Positions 11,558 through 39,220 of a stretch of 64,000 bases of DNA are shown piece after piece. Made by a program: the position numbers and the translations under genes. Each line of letters opens with the position of its first letter. Positions within the stretch are counted from its first letter, which is position 1. Source of the stretch: Candidatus Multivorans sp. (GTDB lineage: Bacteria > Acidobacteriota > Thermoanaerobaculia > Multivoradales > Multivoraceae); contig OZ245033.1 of the NCBI GenBank assembly GCA_965224025.1, positions 2,528,001 to 2,592,000 of the forward strand, written 5' to 3'. Under the pieces are notes generated by a model, which was given only the letters and a program-made list of their open reading frames with translations, was not told the origin of the DNA and ran no database searches.

Positions 11558-11935
11558 ATGCGCTACCGCGAGGAGCTTCCGCGAGGCTGTCCGCCCGATG
11601 ACGCCGAGGAGGTTGGGGAACCTCGCTTGATGTTTCGGCTCGCTCGGACGATCCCGCCGACCGAAGCTGACTTCAGGTCCCAGAGAGCCGAGAAGCCGGA
11701 TCAGGTATTTTCGGGCGTGAGCGAGTGTCAGGCCCGCGGATTGTCGATCCATGGGGATCGTGCCGATTCCGAGCAGGTGCTGAAACTACCGAAGATGAGA
11801 GGACGCCGCGTCTGTAGACTGTCGTTGACGGCCGGAGCGGGTCGCGTTCAGCAGACCGGGATGCGTTCCCACCACGCTTGGTGGCCCTTCGCCGACTACG
11901 ACGTCCTGGCTTGTTGTGACGGTGACGTCCAATGA
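11558..11935 (+). CDS. Small hypothetical protein (CPP...FR...GLS...HxxWW), possible ADP-ribosyltransferase-like fold
   Basis: 125-aa ORF from the ATG at 11558, with its stop overlapping the next start (ATGA). The fold assignment is inference only. Confidence 0.6.
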   Translation: MRYREELPRGCPPDDAEEVGEPRLMFRLARTIPPTEADFRSQRAEKPDQVFSGVSECQARGLSIHGDRADSEQVLKLPKMRGRRVCRLSLTAGAGRVQQTGMRSHHAWWPFADYDVLACCDGDVQ

Positions 11936-13077
11936 GAAGCATCACCCACAAGGCGACCCTGTTCTGGTACGACGGCCCGCAGGTGTTCGAGGCACGCGAT
12001 GCTATCGGCGGCCACTACGTGGGCGTAGCTGTGGAAGAACCGCCCGGCGTGAGCCGCCATCTCGTGGTGGGTGTACCGCCGGCGAGGCTGCGCCGGCTCC
12101 GAGCCGGTGCTCTCGATCTGCGGGCCTGCCTGGTGGAGGCCGGCGCCGAGGAGTGGCATTTGACGCCTGCCGAGGCCGATTTGGCGGAGCCGCTTCCGCT
12201 CGACGTCCAAGCAGGGTCCCTTGAGGAGACGGGCTTGTTGCCGGACGAAGGCTTCTTTCTGCATCCTGATCCTTCGGATGAGTCGATGCTCGTCGAATCT
12301 CGGGCACGCAACAGGCTGGTGATGGAATTGGCGGCTGAGCCCCCGGAAGCTGCCGCGGAACATCGCATTCGACTCGACACCTACCTTGAGATCCTCGGCG
12401 AAGTCCAAACCCTGGTCAGGCACGCCTACAGGTCGGCGTGGCGAGAGTTGTCCAAGGGCTATCGCAGCATGCTGGAGCAGGACACGGGCCCCATGCTGGA
12501 TGTTGTCGTACCAGCTTCTGGCGGCTCGTTTCGGGTGCTTCTCGAAGCCACTCAGACGCCGAATCTGATCGGAGAGAGCGAACTCGTCCGTGCACTCCGA
12601 CGCGTTGATGCGCTGTTCGAGCGGGTGGCAGAACCCGACAGGGCAACTGCTACAGCGCGGGAGCACAGAGGCCATCTCGCGGGCTCTTACCTGAGGCTCC
12701 TGCGCGTTCTGGCAGAGCGAGACACCAGCTTGCGGTACTCGTGGGCGGAGCCATCTGCAGTCGGTGCCTCGCGCCGCTCCGTGACGGCGGCCGAGGCTGA
12801 ACGACTCGTTCAGGTCCTCTCAGGCGTGTCGAACCTGAGCACCGAGTCCGTCACATTGGAAGGTGAGTTCGAGAAGTTCAATCGCGCTTCGGGTCTGTGG
12901 GGTCTGTTCACGGAGCACGGCAAAGTCCAAGGCAAGATCCGTGACGGCGGCCCGAGCCTGGACGGCCTGGAAGTCGGTGGTCGCTACAGGTTTGCTTGCA
13001 TCGAGGAAATAGACCAAGTGGAAGGTACCGGCCGGGAGAGCCGTACGCTGTACTTGACAGGTCACGACCCCGCCTGA
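11932..13077 (+). CDS. Hypothetical protein with a DUF6575-like N-terminus
   Basis: N-terminal LFWYDGPQVF motif; 381 aa; translationally coupled to the upstream small gene. Confidence 0.65.
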   Translation: MRSITHKATLFWYDGPQVFEARDAIGGHYVGVAVEEPPGVSRHLVVGVPPARLRRLRAGALDLRACLVEAGAEEWHLTPAEADLAEPLPLDVQAGSLEETGLLPDEGFFLHPDPSDESMLVESRARNRLVMELAAEPPEAAAEHRIRLDTYLEILGEVQTLVRHAYRSAWRELSKGYRSMLEQDTGPMLDVVVPASGGSFRVLLEATQTPNLIGESELVRALRRVDALFERVAEPDRATATAREHRGHLAGSYLRLLRVLAERDTSLRYSWAEPSAVGASRRSVTAAEAERLVQVLSGVSNLSTESVTLEGEFEKFNRASGLWGLFTEHGKVQGKIRDGGPSLDGLEVGGRYRFACIEEIDQVEGTGRESRTLYLTGHDPA

Positions 13078-13167
13078 ACTTGCCGGTCGGGAGACTGAAC
13101 CGCTGGGCGGCAGTACGGTGTTCCGCTACGGCGGAAGAGCGGCCTTGGGCCCGTAGCCGTTCTGGTT

Positions 13168-14747
13168 TCAGCCGCGGTCCAGCACTTCTCCCAGCGATCG
13201 TGGTTTCGGGCCGCCGAGACCAGCCTCGGTGGGCTCATCCAGCTTCGGCAGGTACTCCGGCGGCCGGAACAGCGGATTGCCCGGCGACCAAAGCTCCACG
13301 CTTTCGGCGTGTTGCTCGTAGTACGCCGGGTTGGTCGTGATCCGAAGTGCTTCGCTCATGCCGGGCGCCAACAGGGTGTACTCGCGGTTGCCGGCGTCCA
13401 GGTAGCTGACGTCGAAGCCCGGCGGCATCAGGTCAGGGCGTCCGAGCACCCGCTCCAGGTCCAGCATGGTCATCGGGGGTTCGGGCCGCGCAGGGAGTTC
13501 CAGTTCTTCATCGAGGACGGCGTCGAGGTCGAATCCGCCGGTTTCGGTTTCGTCGATTCGGCTGCGCATTCGGTCCGCGAGGTTCGATGTGCCTTGGTCG
13601 GCTGTCGCGGTGCCGCGGCCCGCGAGGACTTCTTGGGTGATCGTGCGCGGCAGTTCGGCGAGGATGGGCTGCAGGCGGCCGACGACGGTCTCGAAGAGGT
13701 CGATGCGCTCCTGGAGGGCCCGGTAGACGTCGGCTTCGACGGTGTCCTCGTAGTGCAGGTTGACGATGCGGATCGTGGGGCTCTGCTGGCCCAGGCGGTC
13801 GATGCGGCCGATACGCTGCTCGACCCGCATCGGGTTCCACGGCATGTCATAGTTGACGATGGCGCCGCAGAACTGGAAGTTCAGCCCCTCCGCGGCGGCG
13901 TCGGTGCAGAGCAGGACCTCCGCGTCGCCGGCGCGGAAGCGCCTCTTGACCTCGTCGCGCTTGATAACCCGCCAGCCGCCGTCGGCGGTCGGGGCCTCGC
14001 CGCCGCGGCCCGAGTAGCACATCGGCTTAGGCCCACCGCGGTCGGTGCCGAGCGCCTCGCGTAGGAAGTCCATCGTGTCCGTGTACTGAGTGAAGACCAT
14101 GACCTGCGCGTAGCCGCTGTCGCGCAGGTGGCTCAGTTCCGCCTTCAACGTTGCCAACTTGCTGTCGGGCGGTAAGCGCCGGGTCTGCTCCAGCAGGTTC
14201 TGGATGTCGGCGCCCTCTTCCGCAGCGAGGGCCTGCCGCTCCTTTTCGGCCAACTCGTCGACGTCCCAGTTCTCGCCCCGGAGCTCGTCTTCGAAGGCCT
14301 CCTCGTCCAGGTCGGTCCGGCGTACCGCGCCGGAATCGCCGATCGCGGCCAGTCGGTCCTGGAGCGTGTTCGCGAGCGCCCGGAAGCTGCTGGCCAGCCG
14401 CCGGCGACCATCCAGGCCAACAGTTCGAGCGCCTCGGCCTCGTCGGCGACCGGTTCGAGCGTCATGGCGCCTAGACGCCGGTCGACCATGTTTCGCAGGC
14501 TCTCGCCCCGCTCGATTGCCTCGATCTCGGGTGGATCGAGCGTGCAGCCGACGAGCAGCCTCATGCGTCCGGCGTTGCGAACCAGCCCCTCGATGCCGCG
14601 CGCCGCCAGGGTCAGCGCGCCGGCCTTGAAGTACCCGGTCAGCCGGTCGTAGCGCTCCGCGTCCTCCAAGGCCGGGACGTAGAAGACCCGCACCAGATCC
14701 CCGTCTTCCGGCGTGTACTTGAGGTGCCAGGAATGGTCGCTCAGCAT
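13168..14747 (-). pseudogene. PLD-like/SNF2 helicase of a restriction-like system, internally deleted
   Basis: The N-terminus (FYVPAL...YDRLTGYF...LLAWMVA, 14747 to about 14405) is joined out of frame to the helicase C-terminal half (RRLASSF, VFTQYTDT, TDAAAEGLNFQ, YDMPWNPMRVEQRIGRIDR). The Walker A/DExH half is missing. Confidence 0.85.
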
Positions 14748-14769
14748 CGGTGGAGGCCCGGCTCGGGGA

Positions 14770-17734
14770 TCAGGTCGCCTCGGCCAAGCGCAATGCGAGC
14801 TGTTCCGGCTCGTCGATCCGGTCTGCGAAGGCGAATCGGCGGAGGTTGTAGAGGGCCTCGAAGTCGTTGCTGGACGCGGCAATTTCGCCCTTAAGCGCGA
14901 CGCCGGTGAATGTTGTCGACACCGGGAGAACCTCGAGCACGGCTTCGAACGCGGCCAAGAAGAGCGGATCCTCGTCGACCTGAGCCCGCGCGAGCAGGTC
15001 GCGCGCCTCCTCCAGCGACCGGCTGCGGGCCGTGTGGGCCGCGTGATGGAGAGCGTCGATCATTCCCAGGGCGCCGTCCGCTGGTCCCAGGGCACCGCGC
15101 GCCGCCCCGGCGCTCGCTGTCCCAGAGTTGAACGTTGGCGCTCTTCTTCAGCGCCAGACGGCCGACGATCTCGCGGTCGAGGTCGGCACCCGTGGCGCGA
15201 GCCAGCCTCAACGCCTCGTCGAAGGAGAACACAGGCGCCTTGAAGGCATCCCAGGCCAGGACGAAGAAGGCGGTAGCCGGGTCGAGGTCGACATTGGCCT
15301 TGAGGTGGGTCAGTTGCTCCAACCGCCAGCGCTTCACTTCGCGGCGCGCCACGTCAAGAGCGTCCTCGGGCGTGACGGCATAGGGGTCGGGCTCTTCCAG
15401 CAGGAGCGCTGTCTGATGGCCTCTCCTCTTCGCGCTGGCCGGCAGTTCCCGGGGCGTACCGCGCCGGAGCGGCCAATGGCGGGAGAACTGCTCCAACGCC
15501 GGCCCGAAGCACGCGAGGTACAGGTCCACGCCGCCGATGCCGGCCTCCTGGAAGTCACCGACGCGGGCACGAACCGCTTTGGCGACTTCCGGTTCCACGT
15601 CTTCCCAGTACGTGGTCGAATCCCGGAGTTCGGCCGCGTTGCGGTCGTCGGGCGGGCGGCAGACGAGGAAGATCGTGCTCTTGGCGGCTGCCTTGTCCTT
15701 GATGTGCAGGCTGCCGGCCGCCTCCGTGTTGATCGGCCAGGACGCCGTGATCCGGAAGCCGGCCGTCATCAGGCCCGTGGTCAGTGCATCCCAGGCGCCG
15801 GTGGCCTTGTGGGTGAACATCAGGGTCATGATGCCGTCAGGCTTCAGCACCCGGCGGCATTCCCGGAAGATCGCCGCCATGCGTTCCTGGTAGTCGCGGC
15901 CGGCGAGCGCCCGAGCGCCCTTCTTGCCCTGAAACCGAGCCGGATTGGCGACCGCTTCGTTCTCCTTGTCGGTCAATTGGCGCCGGCAGAGCTCCGGGAA
16001 CACGTGGCCGGCCGTGCGCTTGAGCCAGACGTAGAAGAAGTCGGACAGCTCGGCGTACATCACGTTGTCGTAGTAGGGCGGGTCCATGACGACGTCGTCG
16101 ACGGAGGCGTCGTCGATGTGGTCGAGGCTGTCGCCGGGTTTGCAGGTGATGGTGATTGGCGGCGGGCCGGGCCGGTTGGTGTCGCCGTCGTGTGCGTCGC
16201 GGAGCAGGGGGCCTTCGTTCGGAGTGGCGTTGGGGTTGACCAGGGCGACGAGTTCCTTGACGCACTTCGCGGTCTGTTTGGTCGCCCAGTCGTAGCCGAC
16301 GCCGGCGATCAGCGGCGCCATCTCGGCGTGGGACCAGCAGAACGCGAAGTAATGACGATTGAACGTATTGGCCATGACCTCGCGGGTTGGCATCCACACC
16401 GACATGCGGGAGTTGTAGTTCAACAGCTTGTCCAGCGCCAACGCCAGGTGCCCGTAGGCAGCCTTGCGCACTTCGTCCAGTTCGCCCGCGGACCGATCAG
16501 CTTCTAGCAGCTCCCGGAAGACCTCGACGCTCGTGCCGTGGCAGAGCAGTTGGCGGGGCGAGAACAGGTCGCGCCAGAGCGGCATCCCGTACTGGATCGG
16601 GCGCGTGTCATTGCCGTCTTTCGGGAAGCGCTCGCTCGGCACGATGTCGAACGCCTCCCATTCCGGCATCTTTGCGACGAGGCGTTCGGCAATCTCGGCC
16701 GAGTTGTCGTCCTCGGGCCGCGGTGCCCGATAGCCGCGCAACCACTTCTCCCGGAGCTTCCCGGTCTTCGTCCGCGTTTCGACCCGACGCTTGTAGACCA
16801 CCGTGTAGAGCTGTTCGCCCATCCGGCCGGCCTGCGCCTGCGCCTTGATTTCGTCGCCGTCGATCACTCGGCCTCAGTCGCTGAAGGTGCACGTTCCGTC
16901 GTCGCGCGCGACCGTGCCCGCAGACTGTTCGTCGGCTGACTCCACGATCTCGAACGAGCACACCCGGCCCGCGGTTCCGGGGCCGCCGGCGACTTCGGGC
17001 CGCAGCCGAACGCCGGTTCCGCCGGGCGCGAGCCGCCAGTTCGGCGACAGCGGCACGAGGCCATCGCAGTAGGGGCAAGAGACGGTTCGGGACCAGAGAT
17101 ATGTGAGGTCCACTTGTTCAGGAAGGTCACGCTGTGCGAACAGGTCGGACAACCTCGCTTCGAGTTCCCTTCGCCAACGCCGCGCCAAGCCCTGGAACAA
17201 GATTCCGATGCCTGCGGGCCAGTTCGTCGGCCACTCGACCGTCGCCTTCATGACCAGGGCGGCCACAGGGTTCAGGTCGTTGGCAAGACCCGGAAGGCCG
17301 AGTCGAGCCGTTTCAAACGGGATGCTTCCGCCGCCGGCGGTGGGGTCGAGCACGACCGGACCGTCAGATGTCGCAGAGCGGTACGACTCGAACCACTCGA
17401 CGTCGGCCGGAGCGGGAACGTACTTGAAGGCGCGGTCGTAGCCGTAGGGATCCTTGACACGAATGCCCGTTCTCCGGGCGTTGTCGATCTTCGACCTCGC
17501 CTCGACCGGGTCGCCGTGAATCCCAAGTACATGAAGGAACCGCTCCCGGTCCGCGTCTTCCGGCAGCACTGAAGCGAGGACCGCTGCCCGCGAAGCGACG
17601 AGCGGCCGCCGTGCCCACCACACATGCAGATAGTAGGTAGGGGGTAGCGCGGTCATCGACCTGCGCTCGCGGGCGGACTCCTCGCCCAACTCAGCAATCG
17701 GCAGCCAACGTTCGATCAGGCGCGGGTCGGACAT
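14770..17734 (-). pseudogene. DUF1156-domain adenine DNA methyltransferase, disrupted
   Basis: Motifs LHVWWARRPL, DPTAGGGSIPFE and [21 protein letters not shown]. There is an in-frame TGA at 16874-16876 and a frameshift near 15100. Confidence 0.88.
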
Positions 17735-17773
17735 CGTTCAGACTCACTCCTTGGGAGACGCAGCGAGTATCTT

Positions 17774-18064
17774 CTAGATCAAGGGGCCGAAGTAGCTGCG
17801 GCCCGTTGTGAAGAAGGGCGCCAAGTTGCCTGCTTCGTCTGGACTGAGCCCGGTTCGGAACCATACGTCCAACTCGTGTTCCTCGTCTGCCTGCGCCGAG
17901 AGCTCGACGAGCCCAGACCATTGCCGGCCGCGCGCTTGTTTGAGGCGTTCCGCGTTCAGGTTCGGGATCTCGATGGTGCGGGTCAAATAGGTCGGCTCGA
18001 AGTCCGCCTCCCGGCAAACGACCTCGTCGGGCCGAATGCTCTCGTCCTCGAGACGACTTCTCAT
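17774..18064 (-). CDS. Hypothetical protein
   Basis: 96-aa ORF whose start overlaps the DUF4411 stop, inside the operon. No recognisable motif. Confidence 0.45.
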   Translation of the reverse strand: MRSRLEDESIRPDEVVCREADFEPTYLTRTIEIPNLNAERLKQARGRQWSGLVELSAQADEEHELDVWFRTGLSPDEAGNLAPFFTTGRSYFGPLI

Positions 18065-18555
18065 CGCTGTCGCCAGTCAGTCCGGAAGTCTAGGCGGCGC
18101 AGCAGTTCGTACGTATCAATGCAAGGGACTCCCAGGTCGGCGCAGACATCCGGAATGTGGCGGTTCGCCCGCTGCCTCTTCGGCTTGCTCCGTTCCATGG
18201 TCACGACGGTCACTTGTCCGGGCAGCGCGACTCCGTACGCGACGATGAACGGGTCGGCCTTGAGTTTCTCCAGTTCGTCCTCGGCCAGATCGGTAGCGTA
18301 GCCGACTTCCACGGCGCGGCTCACGGGACCGGCCTCCAACTCCGTTTCTTCCAGAAGAACAGGCTTGTGCTCCTTGACCCACTTGACGAGCTGGCCCTTG
18401 CCATCCTTGACCTCCTCGAACGCCTCAACTGGCACCTTGAGAAGACCCTACGCGGCCAGATGGAGCAGCCACTCCCAGAACTCGGGTACACGGTCGATTG
18501 GGTAGTAGTCGCGGTCCGCGTCGATCAGGACGTTCGAGTCCAGGAGATAGCGCAA
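18061..18555 (-). pseudogene. DUF4411-family PIN-like protein with a premature stop
   Basis: Reads MRYLLDSNVLIDA..YYPIDRVPEFWEWL...ADPFIVAY...VVTME...IPDVC, with an in-frame TAG at 18448-18450. Confidence 0.8.
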
Positions 18556-18570
18556 GTGCAGGCGCCCGGG

Positions 18571-19740
18571 TTAGCCGCTGAGCATCTCGCCCACTTGGGT
18601 GGGCTTCACGCCTAGGACCAGGGCGGCACGGGTTGTCGGCAGGTCGCCGGCGAAATGCGCGTTTCTTACAGCGTCCACCAGGGCCCTGCCGGCGCGATGG
18701 CGCCGTACCGTGTAGAAGTTGGGGCCACCGTCGATGGCTCGGACCGCTTCTCTTCGTTCCTCTCTCCGGCCGAGCCATTGGGTACGGAAGGCGGAGATCA
18801 GCCCCCTGTACTCTTGCGGCTCGATCTGATTCGATCGAAACAGGCGGTATGCCACCAGGGCGCGGCTCACGTTGTGGGCCCTGGCCGTTGTGCCAATAGC
18901 GCTTGCAAACTCTTCGCGTTCGAGACGACTCAGTTCCAGCGCCGTCAGGGCCTTCTCGGGAAGCAGGTGCGTGCTGGCAACGTCGTTGCAGAACTGCTCC
19001 ACGCGATTGCCGGCTCTGGTGCCGCTGATCCCGGTGTGGCCCAGGAACACGTGCACAAGCTCATGCACCAGCGTGAACGACCACGCCGCTCGGGCGTCGT
19101 TGTCATTGATCACTATGAATGGGGCGAGTCGATCGGCCAAGGCAAAGCCGCGGAACGTCTCCGTGTCGATGGCTGTCTGGTAGCTGCCCAGGTCGCCCTT
19201 CAGCAGGACGAACACGCCCGCTTCGTGGACTGACTCCCGCAGCCTCTCGAAGGCCTGAGTCGGGTTGGCGGCTTGCCTCGCGTGAGAGGGGCCGAGGACC
19301 TGGCGTGCGAGTTCAAGCGCGGCAGAGCGCCCATCGTTCAGTGTCAGGGAGCCAACGAAGGGAACTTCGGGAGCCTCTTCTTCGACCAGGATGTCGCGCA
19401 GAATGCTCTGGCGCGCCAGGACCTGACGAACAAGAACCTGAACCCTGGCGTCGTCGCTCGGAGCCCGGACGCCTGAAAGACTGCGAAAGTCCGTTCCGCG
19501 GTCGCCTCGTTTCGGTGGCTTCGAGAGATAGAAAGCGACCAACGGACGCCGATACTGCCTTGCCATTCGGACCAGCATTGGTCGGGTAGGTTCCCGAGCG
19601 CCGGATTCGAGTTCCTGCAGACGTTCGACCGGCGTCTTGCCGTAGGCGGCATTGAGCGAGAGCTTGGCGACGGCCTCTTCCATCGACAGGCCGGCACTGT
19701 CGCGCGCCCAGGAGAGGATGTCAGGGTTTACAGCAGGCAT
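18571..19740 (-). CDS. XRE-HTH plus ImmA/IrrE metallopeptidase protein
   Basis: HTH start VNPDILSWARDSAGLS, a DFR linker and the HExxH motif FTLVHELVH. Classic partner of DUF4411. Confidence 0.9.
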   Translation of the reverse strand: MPAVNPDILSWARDSAGLSMEEAVAKLSLNAAYGKTPVERLQELESGAREPTRPMLVRMARQYRRPLVAFYLSKPPKRGDRGTDFRSLSGVRAPSDDARVQVLVRQVLARQSILRDILVEEEAPEVPFVGSLTLNDGRSAALELARQVLGPSHARQAANPTQAFERLRESVHEAGVFVLLKGDLGSYQTAIDTETFRGFALADRLAPFIVINDNDARAAWSFTLVHELVHVFLGHTGISGTRAGNRVEQFCNDVASTHLLPEKALTALELSRLEREEFASAIGTTARAHNVSRALVAYRLFRSNQIEPQEYRGLISAFRTQWLGRREERREAVRAIDGGPNFYTVRRHRAGRALVDAVRNAHFAGDLPTTRAALVLGVKPTQVGEMLSG

Positions 19741-19783
19741 GGTTGGCTTAGACCTAACGAGAACGTTGCCCCGGGCGTAGCAC

Positions 19784-20275
19784 TCACCGCCCCGGCTCCG
19801 TCAACAACAACCGCAACGCCGCCAGCACCCGTCTCGGCCTCTGCCGGTGCATCGCCATGCCGAGCCAGTAGGCCGCCTCCTCGCGGTCCATTCGTTCGAT
19901 GCCTTCGGCTACGGCGCGCATCCGGTCCCGGCTCCGCATCGGGGCCAACGTGCGAAACAGGAGGCCGAGATGGAGCGCCAGATCCTCGGTCAAAGCGAGG
20001 CCGTGCTTTACGTCCCTGGCGGGGCGAGTGAGTTTCACGCCTGCTTTGGCGAGACGTTTCAGCACGCGGTGCTCGACGAGTTCGAGGTTGCGGCCCCTGA
20101 GGCCGGCGACGCGGGCAGGCGCCGTGATCTGGGGCGACGCCGCCGCGGGCAGTTGCCAGATCTCGTAGTTCGCCATGGCCGAGCCGAGCGGACGGATTCG
20201 CAATTCGTAGCGGAGTGCCGCGCGGGCCGTGTCGATGTGCCTGAGCTTCGCGGTGCGTTGCGGGTGCGGCGTCAT
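19784..20275 (-). CDS. Small conserved accessory protein of DUF499 systems (in the position of DUF3780)
   Basis: Motif EEAAYWLGMAMHRQRPRRVLAALRLLL. Its start overlaps the DUF499 stop. Confidence 0.7.
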   Translation of the reverse strand: MTPHPQRTAKLRHIDTARAALRYELRIRPLGSAMANYEIWQLPAAASPQITAPARVAGLRGRNLELVEHRVLKRLAKAGVKLTRPARDVKHGLALTEDLALHLGLLFRTLAPMRSRDRMRAVAEGIERMDREEAAYWLGMAMHRQRPRRVLAALRLLLTEPGR

Positions 20276-23200
20276 GGCTGTTCCTCGGGGGTGGGCGACG
20301 GTGTGTCTTCCGGGGCAGAGGCTTCGGGTCGCGCGACGGCGGAGGCCGAAACATGGGCGGCGCCGCTAGCGAAGCGGGTCAGTTGTTCGGCCAGTTCCTC
20401 GGGGGCGTCGCCGTTCATCGTCAGGCCATCGGTGAAGTCGAGCGTGAACGTCGCTTGGATGTTGGAAGCGGCGGCCCCCCGGAACTGCGGTTCGAGGAAT
20501 TCCCGGACCGGCTGTGCGTCGGACGGTGGGCCTCTAAACTCCTCCAGCAGGAAGTGGCCCCCGCCGCGCGTCTCATAGCCGCCTTCCAACCGCACTGTCT
20601 TCGCGGCGCCAGCGACTGCGTTCACCGCGTTCACCATGGGGAAGGCGTCGCGCGACTCGAACATCTGGATGGCCAGCGCGTCGAGCGCTTCTACGTTACG
20701 GTCGCGCGCCTGCTCCCAGAGCTTCGTCAGCGCCTCGCGGAACGGTCCTTCGGCAGCGAACTCGGCCTTTCCTGGAGTGGCGTGAGGCGACGTGGGTGGA
20801 GTCGTGTCATCGCTGGGGCGCTCTCGGATCTCGCTGGAGGTCTTGCTCTCCTTGTCCTCCCTGGTGGGTCGGGGCCAGATCGACTCGTTTCTGGCATAGG
20901 CCATGGTGAAGATCATTGACTGTTCGTCGATCTCGATCGTCGGCGCCGGATCGCCGGGACCGAAGAGCAATTCTCCGCGCTGGTAGACGTACTCGCCAAG
21001 CTCCACTCCCCGGCGAATTCCCCGCACGAACACGTCGTTTCCCGAGAGCATGGGAAGTCCCGGATCGCGCCGGAACTCGTCGCGCAGAGCGCCGGTCGAG
21101 ATCTGCCCCTTCTTGAGCGGCGTGCGGTCGCGAACAAAGGCGGCAGAGTCGGGCTGGTCCTCGGACAGTCGCAGCTTGCCGAGGTCACGCAGGGCGCGCA
21201 CGACTTGCTGCTGGCCCGCGCCGGGCCGGTCGGAGGAGGAGTGCATGTCGACCGCGGAGTGCGCGAGGTCGACGTGCCGGCTTCCGATCCGGTTCCTCGA
21301 GGGGTAGAAGATGTGCCGGTAGGCCTGCTGGATGGCGATTGCGAGTTCCTGTTCGGAGCGCTTCTCCTGCTCGCGAACCTGGTTCTGTTGATGCTCGGCT
21401 AGTTCGGCGAGGCGTTCCGGCTTCTTCATCTCGCGCAGCGCCAGCCTTCGCCTGCTGCGGTCCTGCATGTTGGACTTGCGGGCGTCTTCCGGGGCCACGA
21501 AGACGAGGTGATTGCGCAGCGACCGCAACGCGGCGCTTTGCGCCCCCTTGCGCGAGTAGATGCGTTCGATGAGATCGGGAACTTCCTCGACCGCCGGACC
21601 GACGGCTACCCCATCGTAGGAGAGCACGACGAGCTTTGGCCGCCCGTCGCCGACCTCGTCCGGCACGTCGAAGGGTCCGCCGGGGAAGGTGACTGCGTCG
21701 AAGACCGTGCCCGAGAAGATCTGGCGGATGCGGTCGTTCAGTTCGACGCGCGCCTCGCCGCTGTCGACGTGCTGCTCCTCCCGCCGGATGATCTGGCTCA
21801 GATTCGCCTCTGCCAGGAAGCGCAGGGGGGCGGCTGGCCGGTCGTCGAGGTAGGCCGATTCGGCCACGAACTTCTTGCGGGCTTCCTCGACGAAGCTGAT
21901 GTCGAGAGCCGGGCCGAGCATCGAGTAGCGCAGTTGGTCGGGCGCCAGCCCCTTCAGTGGTTCGTTGAACGCCAACGTATGCATGAAGATCGTCGCGCCG
22001 CATACTCGGCGTACGGCGGCATGGCGCGATGGTGCGTGGCGTCGATCTCCTGGGCCAGCGACCTTTTGTCACCGGGTCCCGTGATGTCGTTGGCAATCGC
22101 CGGGGCGTAGGCATCCTGACCGAGGCGCGTGAGGATCTCCTGACGGATCGGCTCGTGCCCCGGATCGATGTGGTGCAGGTGGATTGCGGTGGCGTCGCCG
22201 GGCCGCTCTTCCCACAACTGACCAACGGTGCGCGCAAGCAGACGCAGCATGCCGCGCACGCGCTGGAACGTGGCGAGCGTGGCCGTCTTGCCGGTCAGCG
22301 TCTCCAGGACTTCTGGATGCAGGGGATAGCTGGCGCGGAAAGCGCTCGCCGTCTCGGAGTGGTTGGCCCAAGCGGGAAGCGAGTCGCCGTGGGCGGCCCA
22401 GAGCTCGCGGTAGGCATCGACGACTTCGGTGCCTCCTCCTGCATCATCGATGCTCTCGAACAGGCGCCGCCGGAGCACCTGGGTGGTCTCGTCGTCCGCG
22501 GTTGGGTTCAGCAGCGTCGCCTTGCGGGCTGAGACGCTCTCCGCCTCCGCCATCTGGTCGGCGATGAAGCGGTTTTCCTCGCTGTAGGCATCGGGCGCGC
22601 CGCTGTCCCCCTTGCCGATCGCCAGCGTGTAGACGAGTACCGCGTTCGGCGCGTCTTCGATCGCTTTGAACAGCGACGTCAGGAAGGCGGTCAACTGGTC
22701 CTGCGCGTCGTCGAGCCGGCGGACCTTGCGCAGGTAGACGGAGAGTTCGTCGAGCAGAATGAGGGTCGGCTCGCCGCCGAACAGCTCCTGAAGCGTCCCG
22801 GCACCGGGCGCCACCCGCATCCGGTCGCTGTTGCGTACGCGCTCGTAGCCGGTGGCGCCGGCGAGCGCGTAGGCGATCTCGCCCCACGGCGTGTAGGCCA
22901 GAATGCCGTCGCCGAGCGCTCGTCCGTTGGCGGGGTCGGCGTTCTCACCGTCGAACGCGGCGACGCGCACCGGGCCTTCGGGCAGGAGGGACCGGTCGAG
23001 GAACTCGGCAGAGTTGGCAACGCCTCGCATTCCCCGGGCTGCGTGGACCAGCGCGATGAGGCCGTGGGTCTTGCCGCCCCCGTAGGACGTGTCGAGGCGG
23101 AAGATGGCCGCTGCTTCGCCGCCCGCACCGCTGAGTCGCCGGCAGACGTTGTCGAGCAGATTCCGCAGGCCGCGGGTGGGGTAGGTGTTGGCGAAGAACT

Positions 23201-23339
23201 GTGCAGGGTCGATGTAGGCCGGACTACCAGCGCCGCTGACGACCGAGGCGAGATCGGCGGCGAAGTCGGCGTCGGCCACCGCTCCGCGGAGGATGTCCTC
23301 GCGTGGTCGGCAGGTCTCGAAGATCGTCGGGATTGCCAT
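20272..23339 (-). pseudogene. DUF499 AAA+ ATPase, frameshifted near 21985
   Basis: Motifs CRPREDIL, FFANTYPT, Walker A YGGGKTH, Walker B ILLDEL, SYPLHPE and TFQRVRGMLRLLA. It continues in another frame as 21984-20272. Confidence 0.88.
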
Positions 23340-23358
23340 CTCGGCGGAAGGATAGCGT

Positions 23359-24426
23359 CTACAGCGCGGCGTCGTCGGTGAGGCGAGCGGGGTTGTAGGG
23401 CAGGGCCGGCCGGTCCAGGAACTGGGCTGCCGCCTCGTCGCCAAGGGCATCGAGAGCCGCTTCCGCAGCCAACGGCAGGTCGGCGGCGGCTCTGCGCCAG
23501 TCGTCGAGTTCGATGGGCTTGGCGTTCGTCGGAGGCTCGATCCGAACGAGCCTGTCTGCGCCAATGAGCAACCCGGCTTGGCCGTTGGCGTTCTGGGCCT
23601 GGAGGTCCATGGCGGCCAGAATGAGGTCCGACCATAGGAGCTTTCCACCCAACCGGATCTTCCAGTTGCCAACCCGCCGACGGGCAGCTCCGCATCCCAA
23701 GCCGAGGATGCGGACTTGGTCGCGAGAGATGTCGAAGCACGACAGCGCTTCGGTCAGCGCGACCATGGTCGGGTTGTTGGCCCAGACGCCTCCGTCGACC
23801 AGTACATAACCGCTGCCGTCGCGGAGCGGCTGGAAGAACGTAGGCGCCGCCGAAGTCGCCTCACCGACCGCGACCATCCCCTTCGCGCCGTCTAGGTGGT
23901 AGTCGGAATGGTGGGGCGTCTTGTAGACGAAGACCTCGCCATGCAGCCCTTCCATGGCGGGCACACAGAGTCGTGCGCAGGACTGACCTAGTCGTAGACC
24001 GCCGAACGACTCCTCCAGGAGACGGCTCAGGGCAGCACGGTCGTAGCGGTAGCGAACCAGGCCCGTGGCGCCGCGCAAGAGCGCTCCGAGGCGGCCAGAA
24101 CGCGTCGGTGGGAACACCTCGCCGCCGCGGTCGATGTAGAGGTCTCGAAGTCGCGCAGCGGGCAGGCCGGCCCCGAGGCCCAGCGCGATGATCCCTCCGG
24201 TTGACGTACCCGCGATCAGGTCGAAGTAGCGGGTGATCGGCTCGCCCCCCAGGTACCGCTCTTCAAGACCGGCCAGGAAGGCAGCCGGGAAGATCCCCCT
24301 GATGCCGCCGCCGTCGATGGAGAGCACGCGGAACTCGCGGTCTGCGGGCCATGGCAGCCGTTTGCGCCGCCGCCTGATCGCTCCCGCGGACCGCGGGGGT
24401 GGTTCATTGTTCCGGGAGGCGTTCAG
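23359..24426 (-). CDS. CBASS patatin-like phospholipase effector (CapV-like)
   Basis: LSIDGGGIRG, GTSTG and DGG motifs are intact. The frame is open up to a CTG at 24426 preceded by a GAGGA RBS; the start position is uncertain. Confidence 0.88.
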   Translation of the reverse strand: MNASRNNEPPPRSAGAIRRRRKRLPWPADREFRVLSIDGGGIRGIFPAAFLAGLEERYLGGEPITRYFDLIAGTSTGGIIALGLGAGLPAARLRDLYIDRGGEVFPPTRSGRLGALLRGATGLVRYRYDRAALSRLLEESFGGLRLGQSCARLCVPAMEGLHGEVFVYKTPHHSDYHLDGAKGMVAVGEATSAAPTFFQPLRDGSGYVLVDGGVWANNPTMVALTEALSCFDISRDQVRILGLGCGAARRRVGNWKIRLGGKLLWSDLILAAMDLQAQNANGQAGLLIGADRLVRIEPPTNAKPIELDDWRRAAADLPLAAEAALDALGDEAAAQFLDRPALPYNPARLTDDAAL

Positions 24427-24469
24427 AGTGCTTCCTCAGGGCACGGCGGCTGCTTCAGTCGCGTTCCGG

Positions 24470-24877
24470 TCAGATGCCGGTCCTGAGCCAGAACTCGTAG
24501 CGCCAGAGCCACTCAGCGGTCCAAGGCACGATCGTGTCGGCGATCGAGAGTCCGGGGTGCCACTCGTCGCCGGCGAGGTCGTGGAGGCACAGGAGTGGCA
24601 GGTACGGCGTGTGCTCGTTCACGTACACATGCGGGATCGGTTGATCCGGTTGCGCCGAACGACGGTGAAGGAGAGGCGCCGTCACACGCACTTCGGGCAT
24701 GGCGTGACGGACTGGGCTCCTGCGATGCAACCGGTGGAGGATCTCGACTTTGTAGGGCCGGCCGTCTGGCTTGAGCTTCCCTTCCCAGTGGATTCTGGTC
24801 TTGGTTCTATCCAGGACGTTGAAGTTGCTCCAGCGCCGTCGCATGCGGTGCTGTTGCTCGTAGGTCGACAGGGTCAT
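24470..24877 (-). CDS. CBASS E2-like ubiquitin-conjugating protein (short type II)
   Basis: Reads WEGKLKP...PHVY...LCLH...EW...IADTIVPW..EWL..YEFW..TG. The stop falls where homologues usually have Trp (TGxW), so the C-terminus may be clipped. Confidence 0.78.
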   Translation of the reverse strand: MTLSTYEQQHRMRRRWSNFNVLDRTKTRIHWEGKLKPDGRPYKVEILHRLHRRSPVRHAMPEVRVTAPLLHRRSAQPDQPIPHVYVNEHTPYLPLLCLHDLAGDEWHPGLSIADTIVPWTAEWLWRYEFWLRTGI

Positions 24878-26124
24878 AGTCCGTCCTCCCCGTCGCCGTG
24901 AAAGGTGTGGCGGGGCACGGTTCTACGGGCGGTATGTACTGCGGCCGCGGTGCCTGCGATCACGCCCCCGGTCGAGGTCACGCGTACGGGCCCTCGTGGG
25001 ATTGCCTTGAGGTGGGGCTCGATCGCCTTGAGGGCTGGGGCTTCGCCGAACAGGCCGGCCAGGATTCCCCTGATCTCATCGATGTTGGAGCTTCGTTGGA
25101 GCGCTAGCAGGTCGGCGACGAGGTTCCTCGAGTCAGTGATGAACGTCGCCTGCGCGTCCAGGTTTCCTGGCCAGCGATCCGTCAGTATGTCGGCAGGGCA
25201 CACCGGGTTCGCGACGTGGAGAAGTCGGCCACCCGTGTTCAAGTGCTCGAACTCGGCAAGGAGAGTTTGTGCCAGTTGAAGCAGAACGTGCAGCAGGCTT
25301 GGGCCACTCACTACTGCCTCAGCGGCGGCGTCGGCGACGAGCTTCGACAGCACGACAGACGGAGGTCGGCGACCGGTCCGCTTGTCGTACCTGACGTTGC
25401 GGCAACGCTTCAATAGCTGGAGTGCCACGACCACCCGGGGCTTCCAGTCCACTGGTATCGGTGGCGGTACCGGCTCAGCAGCCAGGATTCTCTCGTAGGC
25501 TTCGGCGCGACCCGTGAACCACCGGGAGAAGTCGCGATCGTCCGGCATCCGCATCTTGAACCACTCGGCGAAACCGTACGGGTTGGCGATCAGACTCTTA
25601 CCGGCATCGAATTGGCGCTTCGACTCGTGCTCGAAGATCCAGCTTTGCCGGGGAGGTGTTCCGGCTTGGAGGATCGCTGGTGTCAGGTCGACGTGCATGC
25701 CGTCGCCGTAGCTGACCGTCACGCAGCGACTTCGGCGGCGCGTACGTCCGAAGTAACGCGAGCCCGGTTCGCCGCGAACGGCCCTGAACAAGGCGTCCAG
25801 GACGTCGCAGGGTGCGGTTGCGGCCGGCAGGCCTAGCTGGGTCACCGCGTCGATGTCGAACTCGTCGTTGGTGACGCGGGAATTGATCGTCGCCCCGATC
25901 CTCATCGATCCCTGTGCGTAGGTCGTCTGTACGAGGCCATGCAGGGGACTGCCGTGGCGCTGGATCCACTGATCCAGTGTCTCGTACCTCTCGGTGGCTA
26001 GGCGATGCTGGGTTGGGCTGAGCTGGATCCGAATCGCGATGTCGGCAAGGAGTTCGTCTACCATGCTTGATCCGGCTCCACGGCTGGTGACGTCTGTCCG
26101 AGTAGGCTTCGTGTAGTCGTTCAT
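24874..26124 (-). CDS. CD-NTase (cGAS/DncV-like cyclic oligonucleotide synthase, SMODS)
   Basis: Motifs YAQGS, EFDID, HVDLTP and ANPYGFAEWF, with C-terminal HTFHG-DGEDGL. Lies next to E2 and patatin genes. Confidence 0.9.
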   Translation of the reverse strand: MNDYTKPTRTDVTSRGAGSSMVDELLADIAIRIQLSPTQHRLATERYETLDQWIQRHGSPLHGLVQTTYAQGSMRIGATINSRVTNDEFDIDAVTQLGLPAATAPCDVLDALFRAVRGEPGSRYFGRTRRRSRCVTVSYGDGMHVDLTPAILQAGTPPRQSWIFEHESKRQFDAGKSLIANPYGFAEWFKMRMPDDRDFSRWFTGRAEAYERILAAEPVPPPIPVDWKPRVVVALQLLKRCRNVRYDKRTGRRPPSVVLSKLVADAAAEAVVSGPSLLHVLLQLAQTLLAEFEHLNTGGRLLHVANPVCPADILTDRWPGNLDAQATFITDSRNLVADLLALQRSSNIDEIRGILAGLFGEAPALKAIEPHLKAIPRGPVRVTSTGGVIAGTAAAVHTARRTVPRHTFHGDGEDGL

Positions 26125-26176
26125 CGATGTGATCTCCGGCCAGGTCCTGGATCGCGACGCGCGGGTCCTCCACGCG

Positions 26177-26246
26177 GGAAGTGTACGTCGTCAAGTTTAC
26201 AAAGGTATCGCATGATACGCGATTTGACAACCCGTGCTACACTTCC
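26177..26246. promoter_or_regulatory. Nested dyad operator / divergent promoter between CBASS and the HTH-IrrE gene
   Basis: GGAAGTGTA-N19-GTATC-GCAT-GATAC-N19-TACACTTCC, with both arm pairs centred at 26211.5. The outer arms give a TACACT (-10-like) hexamer on each strand. Confidence 0.65.
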
Positions 26247-26388
26247 TAAGTCAGGACGAAGTAGCGGCGAGGAAGATCTCGATCTCGACGAGAGGCATAA
26301 GTCGTTGCCGATCAGCACTTTGCGGCCTATACATGTGTCGTCTGTCTGGCTTGTTCACGCTTGCGGTCCGGCCTGAGGAAGACGATCC

Positions 26389-27471
26389 GTGATCGGAGCG
26401 CGCCTGAAGCTGGCCCGCACGAGAGCGGGCCTGTCCCTGCGCGGTCTGGAGGAGCACATGGGCAGGCTCGTCACTGCGCAGGCGATCGGCAAGTACGAGC
26501 GCGGCGAGTCGTCACCTCGGCCCCATGTGCTGGAGGCTCTGGCCCGCGCCCTCGACGTTACGGTGGACTACCTGTTTGAGGAGGACTCGCTACAGATCTC
26601 CGCGATCGAGTTTCGACGCAAGGGGCGCTTGGGGAAGCGCCAGTTCGCGAGAATCGAGGCCCAGGCCGTGGACGCGCTCGAGCGCTACCTCGCCGTTGAA
26701 GACGTTCTGGGCATCCCGAATCCGCGTTGGAAGGCGCCGTTTGGCGCGATCGCTGGGTTAGGTGCGCCTTCCGAGGCAGAGAAGGTTGCTGAGCGTGTAC
26801 GCGACTGCTGGTGCCTGGGTGACGGCCCCATCCGCAGCATGGTTGGCTTGGTCGAAGACAATGGGGTTCGGGTCCTCGCCTTGGACTTTGGCGGCGGCAG
26901 GCTGGATGGCTTCATGGCTGCTGCGCGACGTGCTGACGGAGAGGAGCTCTCGGTCATCGTGGTAAACGAGAGGAAGAAGGACGGCGAACGCCGCCGGTTC
27001 ACGGTGGCGCACGAACTGCACCATTTACTGCTGGGCGGCGGAGAGGACAGGAAGGCGGAGCAAGCGGCCCACCGCTTCGCCGGCGTACTCCTGATGCCGG
27101 AAGCGGCATTGCGGGACCGGCTCGGCACGCGGCGTACCTCCGTGGCCTGGGAGGAGCTCATTACTCTTAAGCGCCTGTTCGGCGTAAGCCTGCAAGCGCT
27201 CACGTTTCGCTGTCGAGAGTTGGGGATCTTCAGCGTGGCGCTATCCCGGCAGCTCCATCGGGAGTTCTTGCGACGCGGTTGGAGCCGCCCGCCGTATGCC
27301 GAGCCGGAGGTGTCGAAGCCCGAAATTCCCAGCCGATTCCGGAATTTCTGCCTTCGCGCTCTTGCTGAAGGCCGCGTTGATGCGCTCAGGGCGGCGGAGC
27401 TTCTGGGAACATCAGTCGAGGCGCTGTACGGCCAGTCGGTCGATCAGCCTCTTCACACAGGCGGCGCCTGA
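26389..27471 (+). CDS. XRE-HTH plus ImmA/IrrE metallopeptidase regulator (CapH/CapP-like fusion)
   Basis: HTH IGARLKLARTRAGLSL...KYERG and HExxH motif RRRFTVAHELHH. Transcribed divergently from the CD-NTase. Confidence 0.88.
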   Translation: MIGARLKLARTRAGLSLRGLEEHMGRLVTAQAIGKYERGESSPRPHVLEALARALDVTVDYLFEEDSLQISAIEFRRKGRLGKRQFARIEAQAVDALERYLAVEDVLGIPNPRWKAPFGAIAGLGAPSEAEKVAERVRDCWCLGDGPIRSMVGLVEDNGVRVLALDFGGGRLDGFMAAARRADGEELSVIVVNERKKDGERRRFTVAHELHHLLLGGGEDRKAEQAAHRFAGVLLMPEAALRDRLGTRRTSVAWEELITLKRLFGVSLQALTFRCRELGIFSVALSRQLHREFLRRGWSRPPYAEPEVSKPEIPSRFRNFCLRALAEGRVDALRAAELLGTSVEALYGQSVDQPLHTGGA

Positions 27472-27530
27472 GAACTCGCCAACCTCCGACCACCGTAGTC
27501 GGTGCCGGTCGTCGCTGTCGCGGAAGTGCT

Positions 27531-28004: not shown

Positions 28005-28230
28005 TCAGCCGCCTTGAGACGCCGGGAACCCCTCCAGGAACCAGTATTCCCCCTCGACCGCGCCGGCCTCCTCGCCGACCGCGCCGGCTTCAGGCGTCGC
28101 CATGTAGGCCTCCGCCCTCGCCCGGTCCTCGACACCGAGGATGAAGAACACCTCGTCCTCCTTGTCGGCCGAGCGCCAGACGTGCCTGACCGACAATCCG
28201 GCGGCCATTCCGGCGGCCTCCTGCTCGGTC
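28005..28230 (-). pseudogene. Small alpha/beta protein, 5'-truncated by the IS remnant
   Basis: Reads RHVWRSADKEDEVFFILGVEDRARAEAYM. The upstream sequence is replaced by an IS3 orfA fragment. Confidence 0.5.
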
Positions 28231-28438
28231 TCGCCAGCACTTCCAGGTCGGGAACCGCCCCGGCGGGCGCCGCGCCGGCCGGGGGGGCCTCGTCGCTACG
28301 CTCCTCAACCCCCGCGGCCGGGAGCTCCGAGCCGCCGCCAAACCTCTGCTCTCGTCTTGCCATCCATCCTCCTTGCCAACGCGTGCCCTCCACTATTCAA
28401 CGGGATGCCCGCTGTGTCACCTACGTTGGCAGAGAGGG
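28231..28438 (-). mobile_element. Truncated copy (left end plus start of orfA) of the IS at 122-1720
   Basis: Near-identical to about 1513-1720, including the IR and the terminal GAGAGGG. Confidence 0.9.
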
Positions 28439-28474: not shown

Positions 28475-29358
28475 CTAGTCCTCCCGCTCGACCCACCAGC
28501 CCCTGGTTCCGGGCACGAACGCGGTAACGCCTGACGGTCCGAGTTCGACGCCGCGCATGCGCTTGCTGAAGCCCCAGGTGGTGCTGTAGTTCCACAGGAA
28601 CAGGGCCGGCTGGTCGGCCTGGACCTGGGCCTGGAGTTCGCGCAGCAGTTCGGCGCGGCGTTCGCGGTCGAGTTCGACGCGGGAGCGGTCGAACAACTCG
28701 TCGACCTTGGGGTTGCTGTAGCTGTCGTAGTTGCGGCCGTTTTCGATCGCTTCGCTGTGGAAGAAGTTGCGCCAGATGTCGGGGTCGGCGAAGACCTGGT
28801 AGGTGTCGACGCGGGCGATCATCTCGTGCTGGATCAGCCGCGGCGAGCGGCTGGCGTTCTCCTGGATCTCGGTGTCGAAGGAGACGCCGATGCGGCGCAG
28901 GTCGTCGCGGTAGATGTCGACCATGCGGCGGGCGTCGACGAAGGACTGCGGCAGGTTCATCATGAAGTGGAACCGCACCTGCTCGCCGTCGGTCTCCTTG
29001 TAGCGCCAGCCGTCGTCCGGGTTCGTCAGCCAGCCGGCTTCGTCCAGTACCGCGGCCGTCTTGTCCAGGTCGTACTCGAGCGGCTCGACATTCGTATTGT
29101 GGCTCCAATGACTCGGCGGGAACATGCCGTTCGAGCGTGTGTAGACGTTCCAGCTCACCTGCCTCAGCACGCGCTCGGCGTCGTAGGCGTGAGCCATCGC
29201 GCGCCGCACCCGGACGTCGCCGAAGAAGGGGTTGTTCCCGCCCTGTTGCCAGCCGATGTAGGCCTGCATCCAGCGCGGCCCCCCGGGCTGGCGGGGTTGC
29301 CCAGGCAACCCGTCAGCGCCAGGGCGGCGAGCGCGGCGACGCCCAGCCGAGCGATCAT
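28475..29358 (-). pseudogene. Peptide ABC transporter substrate-binding lipoprotein, internally deleted
   Basis: The lipoprotein signal MIARLGVAALAALALTGC is joined out of frame near 29280 to the SBP_bac_5 C-terminal part (FGDVRVRRAMAHA, YSNPKVDEL). Confidence 0.8.
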
Positions 29359-35061: not shown

Positions 35062-35081
35062 CCGCAGGCGCTCGGTCCGGC

Positions 35082-35363
35082 TCAGTGCCCGAGCCCCCTG
35101 GACAAGAAATCCCGCTCGATCGTCAGCTCCCCGATCTTCGCGTGCAGGTCCCTGATCTCCTCCTCGTGGTCCCGGCGCCGCTCCGGCCCGGCCGAGAAGG
35201 TCTCACTCATCCCCTCGATCGCCTTCCGCTTCCAACTGCTCACCTGATTCGGGTGAATCCGGTGCCGCGATGCGATCGCCGCGAGCGGCTTCTCCTCACG
35301 CAGCGCCTCAAGCGCCACCTTCGACTTGAAAGCCGCAGTGAACTTCCGACGCTTCCTCTTCAT
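35082..35363 (-). CDS. IS3-family transposase OrfA
   Basis: Motif RRKFTAAFKSKVALEAL...IHPNQVSSWK. Confidence 0.92.
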   Translation of the reverse strand: MKRKRRKFTAAFKSKVALEALREEKPLAAIASRHRIHPNQVSSWKRKAIEGMSETFSAGPERRRDHEEEIRDLHAKIGELTIERDFLSRGLGH

Positions 35364-38914: not shown

Positions 38915-39220
38915 AGCGAGAGTTCCTTGGCTCTGCCCGGACCGATGGCCCGGGACAGCCGCGCGGAGAGACCCCAGCCGGAGAGCAGGCCGACGCGGGC
39001 GTGGGTGTCCGCGAAGCGCGCCTCCGGGGTTGCGATCAGCAGGTCGCAGGACAGGGCGATCTCGAAGCCGCCGGTCACGGCGATGCCGTTGATCGCGCCG
39101 ATCACCGGTTGACGGAGCGAGCGGAGCAGTTTCGGCGGGTCGGCGATGGCCTTGCGCTTTCGGTTCGGATCGCTCATCTCCTTCAGGTCGAGGCCGGCGC
39201 GGAGGGCGCGGCCGGCGCCG
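38915..39220 (-). pseudogene. Enoyl-CoA hydratase internal fragment
   Basis: Reads GAGRA..AGLDLKE...PVIGAINGIAVTGGFEIALSCDLLIA...FADTHARVG. Both ends are missing. Confidence 0.8.

Follow-up and report, generated by a model that had tools for sequence, protein, structure and literature searches.

CBASS (cyclic oligonucleotide-based antiphage signaling systems) respond to infection through a CD-NTase that makes a cyclic nucleotide; this activates an effector, and abortive infection follows. Loci combining a CD-NTase, an E2-only protein and an effector belong to what we take, from the CBASS classification literature, to be the Type II (short) subtype. Such a trio, with a patatin effector, is encoded in the window described here, that is, the whole stretch of 64,000 nucleotides (nt) of the Candidatus Multivorans sp. 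assembly GCA_965224025.1 (contig OZ245033.1, positions 2,528,001 to 2,592,000; G+C content ~66%). Three modules lie head to tail on one strand: CBASS, a restriction-like system centred on a DUF499 ATPase, and cargo genes inside the latter. The locus is probably a chromosomal defence island of separate modules, in which CBASS and DUF499 were joined a single time, before five related genomes diverged from their common ancestor, and have been passed on vertically, while the DUF499 arm decayed in the present genome.

The control of CBASS is documented for Escherichia coli MS115-1, where passages of the CapH/CapP preprint (bioRxiv 10.1101/2022.04.27.489752) describe cleavage of the repressor stimulated by single-stranded DNA (ssDNA), followed by de-repression of the operon; fused capH-capP genes are reported there in 15 systems. 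By its architecture, the DUF499 system of the window appears closest to the Type-2 BR system of PMC12839542, also called Gao_RL and related to Hma (PMC8565338, PMC11232893). The gene order is the same: DUF499 ATPase, small protein, DUF1156 N6-methyltransferase and helicase, the N-terminal HKD nuclease of the last being seen in intact homologues. The small protein of the window is a DUF7680 and not a DUF3780, whereas a standalone DUF3780 is given for 98% of Type-2 BR taxa (PMC12839542), and only one of the four core genes, DUF7680, has escaped pseudogene formation here. The same source describes embedded backup effectors in DUF499-centred BR systems, and the word CBASS is absent from its main text. 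Hma is reported to have been discovered via its association with Septu (PMC8565338), and 66.5% of hma loci to carry inserted genes, among them Septu, PARIS and GmrSD-like ones (PMC11232893); in the window, too, other defence genes, Septu among them, are inserted inside the locus. Finally, a section of PMC5499597 places HTH-DUF955 (M78) genes upstream of DUF4411 in a three-component toxin-antitoxin-like module, resembling RosmerTA. A fused helix-turn-helix (HTH)-M78 gene stands directly upstream of DUF4411 in the window as well, although this DUF4411 carries a nonsense codon and the gene preceding it matches RmrA weakly (2.8e-12).

The ten open reading frames (ORFs) of the locus all lie on the minus strand, from 26124 down to 13168. 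They are given below in this direction, with profile E-values in brackets, and are preceded by the regulator that diverges from them and the intervening control region.

26389..27471, plus strand: fusion of an HTH (Xre-type) domain and an IrrE/CapP-type M78 metallopeptidase, 360 amino acids (aa), divergent from CBASS
26125..26388, minus strand: intergenic control region between CBASS and the regulator, from reading of the sequence
24874..26124, minus strand: CD-NTase, 416 aa, intact (PADLOC Cyclase PDLC00800, 3.5e-128; Pfam SMODS); overlaps the E2 gene by 4 nt
24470..24877, minus strand: E2-only Cap2-like protein, 135 aa (PADLOC E2 PDLC00877, 5.1e-38); 43 nt from patatin with a CTG start at 24426, 142 nt with a GTG start at 24327
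23359..24327 or 23359..24426, minus strand: patatin-like phospholipase effector (PADLOC PDLC00757, 2.4e-103; Pfam Patatin, 5e-22); 19 nt from DUF499
23340..23358, minus strand: patatin/DUF499 spacer of 19 nt, ACGCTATCCTTCCGCCGAG on the coding strand
20272..23339, minus strand: DUF499 AAA+ ATPase (HmaC / BR ATPase), pseudogene in two frames (PADLOC HmaC, 3.3e-76 and 4.9e-17); overlaps the DUF7680 gene by 4 nt
19784..20275, minus strand: DUF7680 small protein, 163 aa, intact (Pfam DUF7680, 3.5e-43); 43 nt from the next gene
18571..19740, minus strand: second HTH and M78 peptidase protein, labelled HTH-IrrE in the earlier note, 389 aa, intact (Pfam Peptidase_M78, 5.5e-12; PADLOC RmrA, as above); 15 nt from DUF4411
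18061..18555, minus strand: DUF4411 (PIN-like) gene with a nonsense codon (Pfam DUF4411, 8.5e-19, profile positions 44-158 only); overlaps the next ORF by 4 nt
17774..18064, minus strand: 96-aa ORF, Septu PtuB relic (PADLOC PtuB PDLC00349, 1.9e-11, profile positions 155-247 of 260); 39 nt from the methyltransferase
14770..17734, minus strand: DUF1156 N6-methyltransferase (HmaB-like), pseudogene in three pieces (Pfam DUF1156, 2.7e-15; PADLOC HmaB, 1.2e-22 and 3.2e-47, and DUF1156_MTase); 22 nt from the helicase
13168..14747, minus strand: HKD(PLD)-Snf2 helicase remnant (Helicase_C, 4.9e-19)

The earlier note on this DNA, made from the letters alone, had described ten co-directional genes that overlap or are separated by 15-43 nt, with 19 nt between patatin and DUF499. 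This arrangement is confirmed by the ORF map and the spacings, the E2/patatin distance being 43 nt with the CTG start. Its labels CD-NTase, E2, patatin, DUF499, HTH-IrrE, DUF4411 and DUF1156 are upheld by profile searches, and the remaining ones had to be revised. The small accessory gene encodes a DUF7680, and neither it nor 4 homologues match DUF3780 at E≤10. The "hypothetical" ORF matches only the C-terminal third of Septu PtuB. The "PLD-SNF2" gene is a remnant that holds residues 1-117 and 663-1074 of its homologues, in which Pfam finds no PLD domain.

The ancestry of the junction was traced through the CD-NTase, whose homologues in a protein search fall into 17 clusters at 68-81% identity before a step down to ~50%. 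A genome scan with an alignment of 36 homologues confirmed 125 loci, 80 of which were analysed. DUF499 directly follows patatin in 4/80 loci, which are the four closest relatives (L001-L004, CD-NTase 67-79% identical), and in 0/76 of the others. These four are metagenome-assembled genomes (MAGs) titled Acidobacteria, Thermoanaerobaculia or Candidatus Multivorans/Multivoraceae. The segment 26052-19783 of the window, comprising CBASS, DUF499 and DUF7680, is collinear with all four at 77-81% nucleotide identity. The five genomes likewise agree in the DNA flanking the regulator, which contains a thiolase-like gene (79-83%), a gene for SBP_bac_5 (90-92%) and, separating the latter from the regulator, an ORF of ~93-104 aa (window 28008-28295, minus strand; L001 8328-8609; L003 8347-8661). 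This last ORF has a high third-position G+C and 83-89% nucleotide identity, and it matches no family. Identity in the flank (78-92%) is no lower than in the island, and the synonymous divergence (dS) is similar for genes of the CBASS and DUF499 sides (about 0.37-1.06), with ratios of nonsynonymous to synonymous divergence (dN/dS) of 0.13-0.36. Since the five genomes share one chromosomal site and have diverged together, the 4/4 agreement represents a single juxtaposition and not a recurrent assembly.

Both modules occur alone elsewhere, each with its own upstream control region. The closest plasmid homologues of DUF499 (54-61% identical) come from three genera. On the plasmids of Aminobacter and Sinorhizobium, the genes of a compact DUF499-DUF7680-DUF1156-SNF2 series overlap by 4 nt and the DNA preceding them is unrelated; on that of Nostoc, these four genes are separated by short gaps, and a VapBC pair is interposed ahead of the helicase. 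CBASS is beside the DUF499 system in 0/3 of these contexts, and the 19-nt spacer is not found upstream of the plasmid DUF499 genes. The CD-NTase matches 37 plasmid records, and these include none of the 74 DUF499 plasmid records listed (of 142). CBASS modules of this clade, for their part, have various neighbours. The gene just downstream of patatin was surveyed in 61 further loci (the 80 minus L001-L004, minus 13 without a patatin match and minus 2 with too little downstream DNA), taking on the plus strand the longest ORF that starts within 400 nt and on the minus strand the longest that starts within 1200 nt, so that the counts are lower bounds. A PADLOC match (E≤1e-8) is obtained in 21, of which 12 are parts of Type I or Type IIG restriction-modification systems, all on the opposite strand; the others include Mokosh-like, PDC-M02B, TIR-TM and SoFic genes. 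The CBASS clade thus lives in defence islands, often beside restriction systems and in many arrangements, and DUF499 is one such neighbour.

The decay of the DUF499 system is apparent in most of its genes. A 1-nt deletion near 21993 splits DUF499 into frames of 461 and 570 aa, as seen from the nucleotide alignment and from the frame switch of the intact L003 protein in tblastn. The gene is a single ORF in L002, L003 and L004. In the sister genome L001 (12744-15809) it has an in-frame stop at residue 711, a second, independent interruption in the clade. Further profile matches (Pfam DUF499, 2.9e-28; PADLOC DUF499 PDLC02192, 5.4e-30) confirm the family. The methyltransferase, compared with the intact L003 gene, has a codon changed from TGC to TGA (16874-16876) and one extra nucleotide in a G-run (GGG/GGGG) near 15105. 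Intact homologues of the helicase (P0121, P0124 and P0133; 1063-1074 aa) contain Pfam PLDc_2, SNF2-rel_dom and Helicase_C; in the window its two frames meet at 14397-14406, and ~545 residues (~1.6 kb), including the N-lobe of the SNF2 ATPase, are missing. DUF7680, which takes the place held by DUF3780 in Type-2 BR systems, is the core gene left intact, and no relative of known structure is found for it by sequence search. With DUF4411, 4/10 genes of the locus are broken (DUF499, DUF4411, methyltransferase and helicase) and one more, the PtuB relic, is a fragment. From these reading frames, at least five lesions appear to inactivate the DUF499 system, and a single one the DUF4411 toxin of the cargo module. 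As the dN/dS of the broken genes against their relatives is still 0.13-0.21, the decay is recent. When intact, such a module would be a BREX-related restriction-like system formed by the DUF499 ATPase, DUF7680, the DUF1156 N6-methyltransferase and the HKD-Snf2 helicase-nuclease, and would normally constitute a self-contained four-gene operon. As a separate observation, this DUF499 subfamily has a strongly conserved N-terminal half: more than 100 clusters (P0254-P0360, many contigs) are 74-79% identical to the window copy, the CD-NTase being ~50% identical outside the close clade. By the length of the longest contig of each cluster, an indirect comparison that is given no weight as evidence, 5 DUF499 clusters (7018, 15254, 177673, 231245 and 3701229 bases) and 4 helicase clusters (16392, 177673, 231245 and 3701229) pair with close CD-NTase clusters, and a fifth helicase cluster (4889901) pairs with the contig of L003; for two close DUF499 clusters on contigs above 1 Mb (4202391 and 1566876), no close CD-NTase corresponds.

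The segment between DUF7680 and the methyltransferase behaves as an insertion slot. It holds NsnA-NsnB-NsnC and Septu PtuA in L001 and L002, HTH-M78 and an intact DUF4411 in L003, and a HATPase_c protein, a 443-aa protein and a C5-methyltransferase in L004. In the window it holds HTH-M78, the broken DUF4411 and the PtuB relic. L003 is the only one of the four relatives with the second HTH-M78 protein. Its DUF4411 protein aligns over residues 1-164 in one frame across the CAG>TAG nonsense codon of the window (18448-18450), and L003 has no nucleotide counterpart of the 96-aa ORF. The HTH-IrrE (M78), DUF4411 and "hypothetical" genes are inserted cargo and not accessories of the restriction-like system. 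This cargo may have comprised a toxin-antitoxin-like pair, with HTH-M78 as the antitoxin or regulator half and DUF4411 (PIN) as its partner, plus the Septu remnant.

The CBASS genes are far better preserved. CD-NTase, E2 and patatin form one tight operon according to profile searches and the ORF map, and no additional ORF that could encode an E1 or JAB partner fits among the three. The catalytic residues of the CD-NTase (G72 S73, D90, D92 and D146) are invariant in the alignment of the 36 homologues, which includes the window protein. Its nearest solved chains are 7ljn (1.8e-53) and the CdnG 8hsb. In tblastn searches with the window proteins, E2 is present in 77/80 CBASS loci and patatin in 67/80, and the complete trio, shared with Type II (short) CBASS with a patatin effector, is present in 67/80. 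Two features distinguish the window copy from that subtype. The E2 has lost the last ~5-6 residues of its relatives through a TGG>TGA change (alignment to L001-L004), and patatin seems to use a non-canonical start. The canonical GTG at 24327 gives a protein of 322 aa; L002 and L003 have no ATG, GTG or TTG upstream of the IDGGG motif, yet ~30 upstream codons are kept as protein. This suggests that translation possibly begins at a CTG, found at 24426 in the window, or at another non-canonical codon. The patatin translation shows the GTSTG and DGG motifs. Upon infection, the CdnG-like CD-NTase would make a cyclic nucleotide that activates the patatin phospholipase, and the resulting destruction of the membrane would amount to abortive infection; the E2-only protein may modify or prime the cyclase. 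CBASS genes and divergent regulator align over their full length with those of the relatives, and they alone look functional in this genome.

The regulator combines Pfam HTH_3 (2.9e-12) and Peptidase_M78 (2.8e-19) domains and matches the PADLOC profiles RmrA (1.8e-49), capP (1e-16) and capH (2.4e-7). Its HExxH motif (H208 E209 H212) is invariant in 24 homologues. The AlphaFold model (pLDDT 83.7) finds Thauera CapP (7t5t) as its top fold match in the Protein Data Bank (PDB), followed by IrrE/PprI (3dte), and its N-terminus resembles phage repressors and DdrO. A homologue exists in 34/80 CBASS loci and is divergent and less than 700 nt upstream of the CD-NTase in 28/80. The resemblance to CapH/CapP is in the association of an HTH repressor domain with an IrrE-like HExxH peptidase, upstream of and divergent from CBASS. 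Unlike the two-gene CapH/CapP, the regulator is a single 360-aa polypeptide, of the fused kind known from the 15 systems of the preprint passages cited above. The capP profile covers it at positions 39-159 of 242 only and does not detect the C-terminal GAF part of CapP; the 7t5t fold alignment spans 181 columns, and ~75 residues follow the peptidase domain. The better match to RmrA of RosmerTA than to capP is not accompanied by a toxin gene.

The control region contains a -35-like TTGTCA (26225-26230) and, after 17 nt, a -10-like TACCTT (26202-26207), directly followed by a TGTAAAC heptamer (26195-26201), the one copy kept in the window. This heptamer or its complement is found in 25/29 homologous intergenic regions between regulator and CBASS, and in 11/29 a TTGACA...TATAAT-like promoter directed towards CBASS lies within a GTTTACA-N23-TGTAAAC pair. 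Loci with the intergenic heptamer (L001, L003, L005-L007, L010, L012, L015, L018, L023, L024, L027, L029, L041, L048, L055, L056 and L079) span several phyla, and conservation points to TGTAAAC as a candidate operator beside a putative promoter. A palindrome, ATCGCGTATCATGCGAT (26209-26225), was also considered as the operator; because it is absent from L001-L004, it was dropped in favor of the conserved motif. The HTH-IrrE fusion is a probable repressor-protease of the CBASS promoter. It would repress CBASS's own promoter by binding the TGTAAAC-type operator, and by analogy with CapH/CapP this repression would be relieved by proteolysis triggered by DNA damage or ssDNA. The operator-like motif, together with the published CapH/CapP mechanism and its reported fusions, suggests that the CBASS promoter is repressed and damage-inducible.

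The earlier note had gone further and seen in the ten genes a single co-regulated two-tier unit. Under this proposal, CBASS and the DUF499 system would form one operon in this lineage, with CBASS acting as an abortive-infection backup or guard if the methylation-based arm fails or is inhibited. In a concrete version, the restriction-like arm would cleave DNA, the ssDNA produced would activate the CapP-like peptidase, and a shared promoter would be de-repressed. Co-directionality, short gaps and the absence of a terminator are all observed across CBASS and the DUF499 system, which is necessary, and insufficient, for a single operon. The reported lack of a terminator is itself correct, a scan over 15 kb yielding 5 sites against 8.8 expected and 0 at any gene junction. 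Nor does the RNA of the patatin/DUF499 junction form a stable hairpin, folding no better than shuffled sequences (z = +1.09). The 19-nt spacer is nearly invariant in the five genomes, the 3' end of patatin diverging while the 5' end of DUF499 does not. At least three turnovers of the slot 3 kb downstream left the junction in place. Selection to keep CBASS and DUF499 together could account for this survival. The alphaproteobacterial MAG L013, which is unrelated, presents a second, independent juxtaposition of the two modules: a distant DUF1156 methyltransferase, an AAA_21 ATPase and a DUF499 gene lie upstream, then a divergent HTH gene, CBASS and an integrase, in another order and with the HTH gene in between. 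Purifying selection acts on both arms throughout the clade (the dN/dS of 0.13-0.36 given above), 12/61 other loci of this CBASS clade adjoin restriction-modification genes, and the CapH/CapP preprint itself proposes that CBASS cooperates with restriction systems by providing a second defensive line. These points weigh against a mere island of separate modules, as does the restriction to plasmids of the survey of DNA upstream of close DUF499 relatives. A scan for sigma-70-type sites returned 0 anywhere in 12500-27500, so that an internal promoter for DUF499 would be no more than putative; as the sigma-70 consensus may not suit this phylum, the scan is uninformative and no evidence for a single promoter. 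The spacer TATCCT was also tried as the -10 box of a leaderless DUF499 mRNA; no -35 is conserved and the start is GTG in all four relatives, and such a promoter is not claimed. The patatin gene of L004 lacks its stop codon, and its reading frame extends ~40 nt into DUF499.

The operon with a guard role is judged unlikely. Conservation of the CD-NTase linkage to DUF499 in 4/4 close relatives, spacer included, agrees with the earlier claim, yet it concerns one inherited site and one evolutionary event; with 0/76 elsewhere, the adjacency is not seen to recur as such in independent lineages. The 12/61 CBASS loci that adjoin restriction-modification genes are all convergent with them and hence not co-transcribed. 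Close plasmid DUF499 systems start their own operon without CBASS, and CBASS has its own regulator in 28/80 loci. It would be hazardous, furthermore, for a host-protecting methyltransferase to depend on a promoter that is repressed and damage-inducible. In the window the DUF499 arm is dead while CBASS is kept, and L001 has the stop in its DUF499 gene; neither arm seems to need the other. The kept junction and the missing terminator are thus what stands of the single unit, and the guard or backup relation finds no support. With the methylation-based arm inactivated, no two-tier function can operate here. A more elaborate proposal, by which in one acidobacterial family a DNA-damage/ssDNA-sensing HTH-CapP-like fusion controls a single long transcript of CBASS and the DUF499 system, joined by a selected 19-nt linker, restriction-like DNA cutting induces the abortive arm, and the window copy has recently decayed, is about as unlikely. 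Read-through transcription from CBASS into DUF499 is possible, and is needed to explain nothing observed.

The decay might instead be artefactual, the restriction-like arm being intact in the organism and the locus a working pair of CBASS and BR. Two lesions are single-base indels, one of them in the GGG/GGGG run, and could be assembly errors, which also counts against the island with a decayed arm; the nearest relatives are MAG assemblies, one of which (L001) has a stop in DUF499 as well; other genes of the window look frameshifted; and the low dN/dS implies that any decay is recent. Three further lesions are substitutions to stops (TGG>TGA in E2, CAG>TAG in DUF4411, TGC>TGA in the methyltransferase), which are not typical indel errors, and compared with the four relatives the helicase lacks ~1.6 kb and the flanking SBP_bac_5 gene ~0.85-1.2 kb. 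With three substitutions and one large deletion, sequencing error cannot explain all lesions, and insertion sequence (IS) elements and gene fragments crowd the window, as expected of a decaying region. An intact arm is accordingly very improbable, and a defence island of separate modules, joined once and partly decayed, is retained as the preferred explanation.

The surroundings of the island have further features. The SBP_bac_5 solute-binding gene that flanks it (28475-29623) has its break, relative to L001-L004, at 29289/29290. On the other side, a 381-aa ORF (11932-13077, plus strand), convergent with the helicase remnant, has a sub-threshold DUF6575 match (1.6e-4) and no PADLOC match. A lone 580-aa ABC/OLD-family ATPase (31024-32766, plus strand) contains AAA_15 and AAA_21 with weak matches to NsnB, AriA and GajA; it has no recognisable partner gene, and a short sulfatase-like fragment lies 3' of it. 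A second defence remnant (43681-48713, minus strand) consists of an Eco57I/Type IIG-like methyltransferase (43941-46400) and of the N-terminal half of an HKD and Snf2 helicase (46554-48713, minus strand; PADLOC C3a139, 7.8e-51); small extra frames in this remnant suggest frameshifts. Outside the defence island, a frameshift also divides a gamma-glutamyltranspeptidase (39113-41129) into two overlapping frames (Pfam profile positions 2-269 and 288-511). An IS3-family element occupies 165-1678, and transposase genes of IS3, truncated ISL3 and IS630 type are clustered at 34195-37596; these add to the picture of a rearranging region.

The locus illustrates known facts: defence systems pile up in islands, DUF499/Hma-type systems are insertion hotspots for other systems, and their arms decay quickly. 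Two by-products extend beyond the window. The small partner in this DUF499 subfamily is DUF7680 rather than DUF3780, and the HTH-IrrE regulators of this CBASS clade have a widely conserved operator-like TGTAAAC, often as GTTTACA-N23-TGTAAAC. A junction that proved to be a genuine operon would represent a natural transcriptional coupling of restriction-like and abortive-infection systems and a test case for the coordination of layered immunity.

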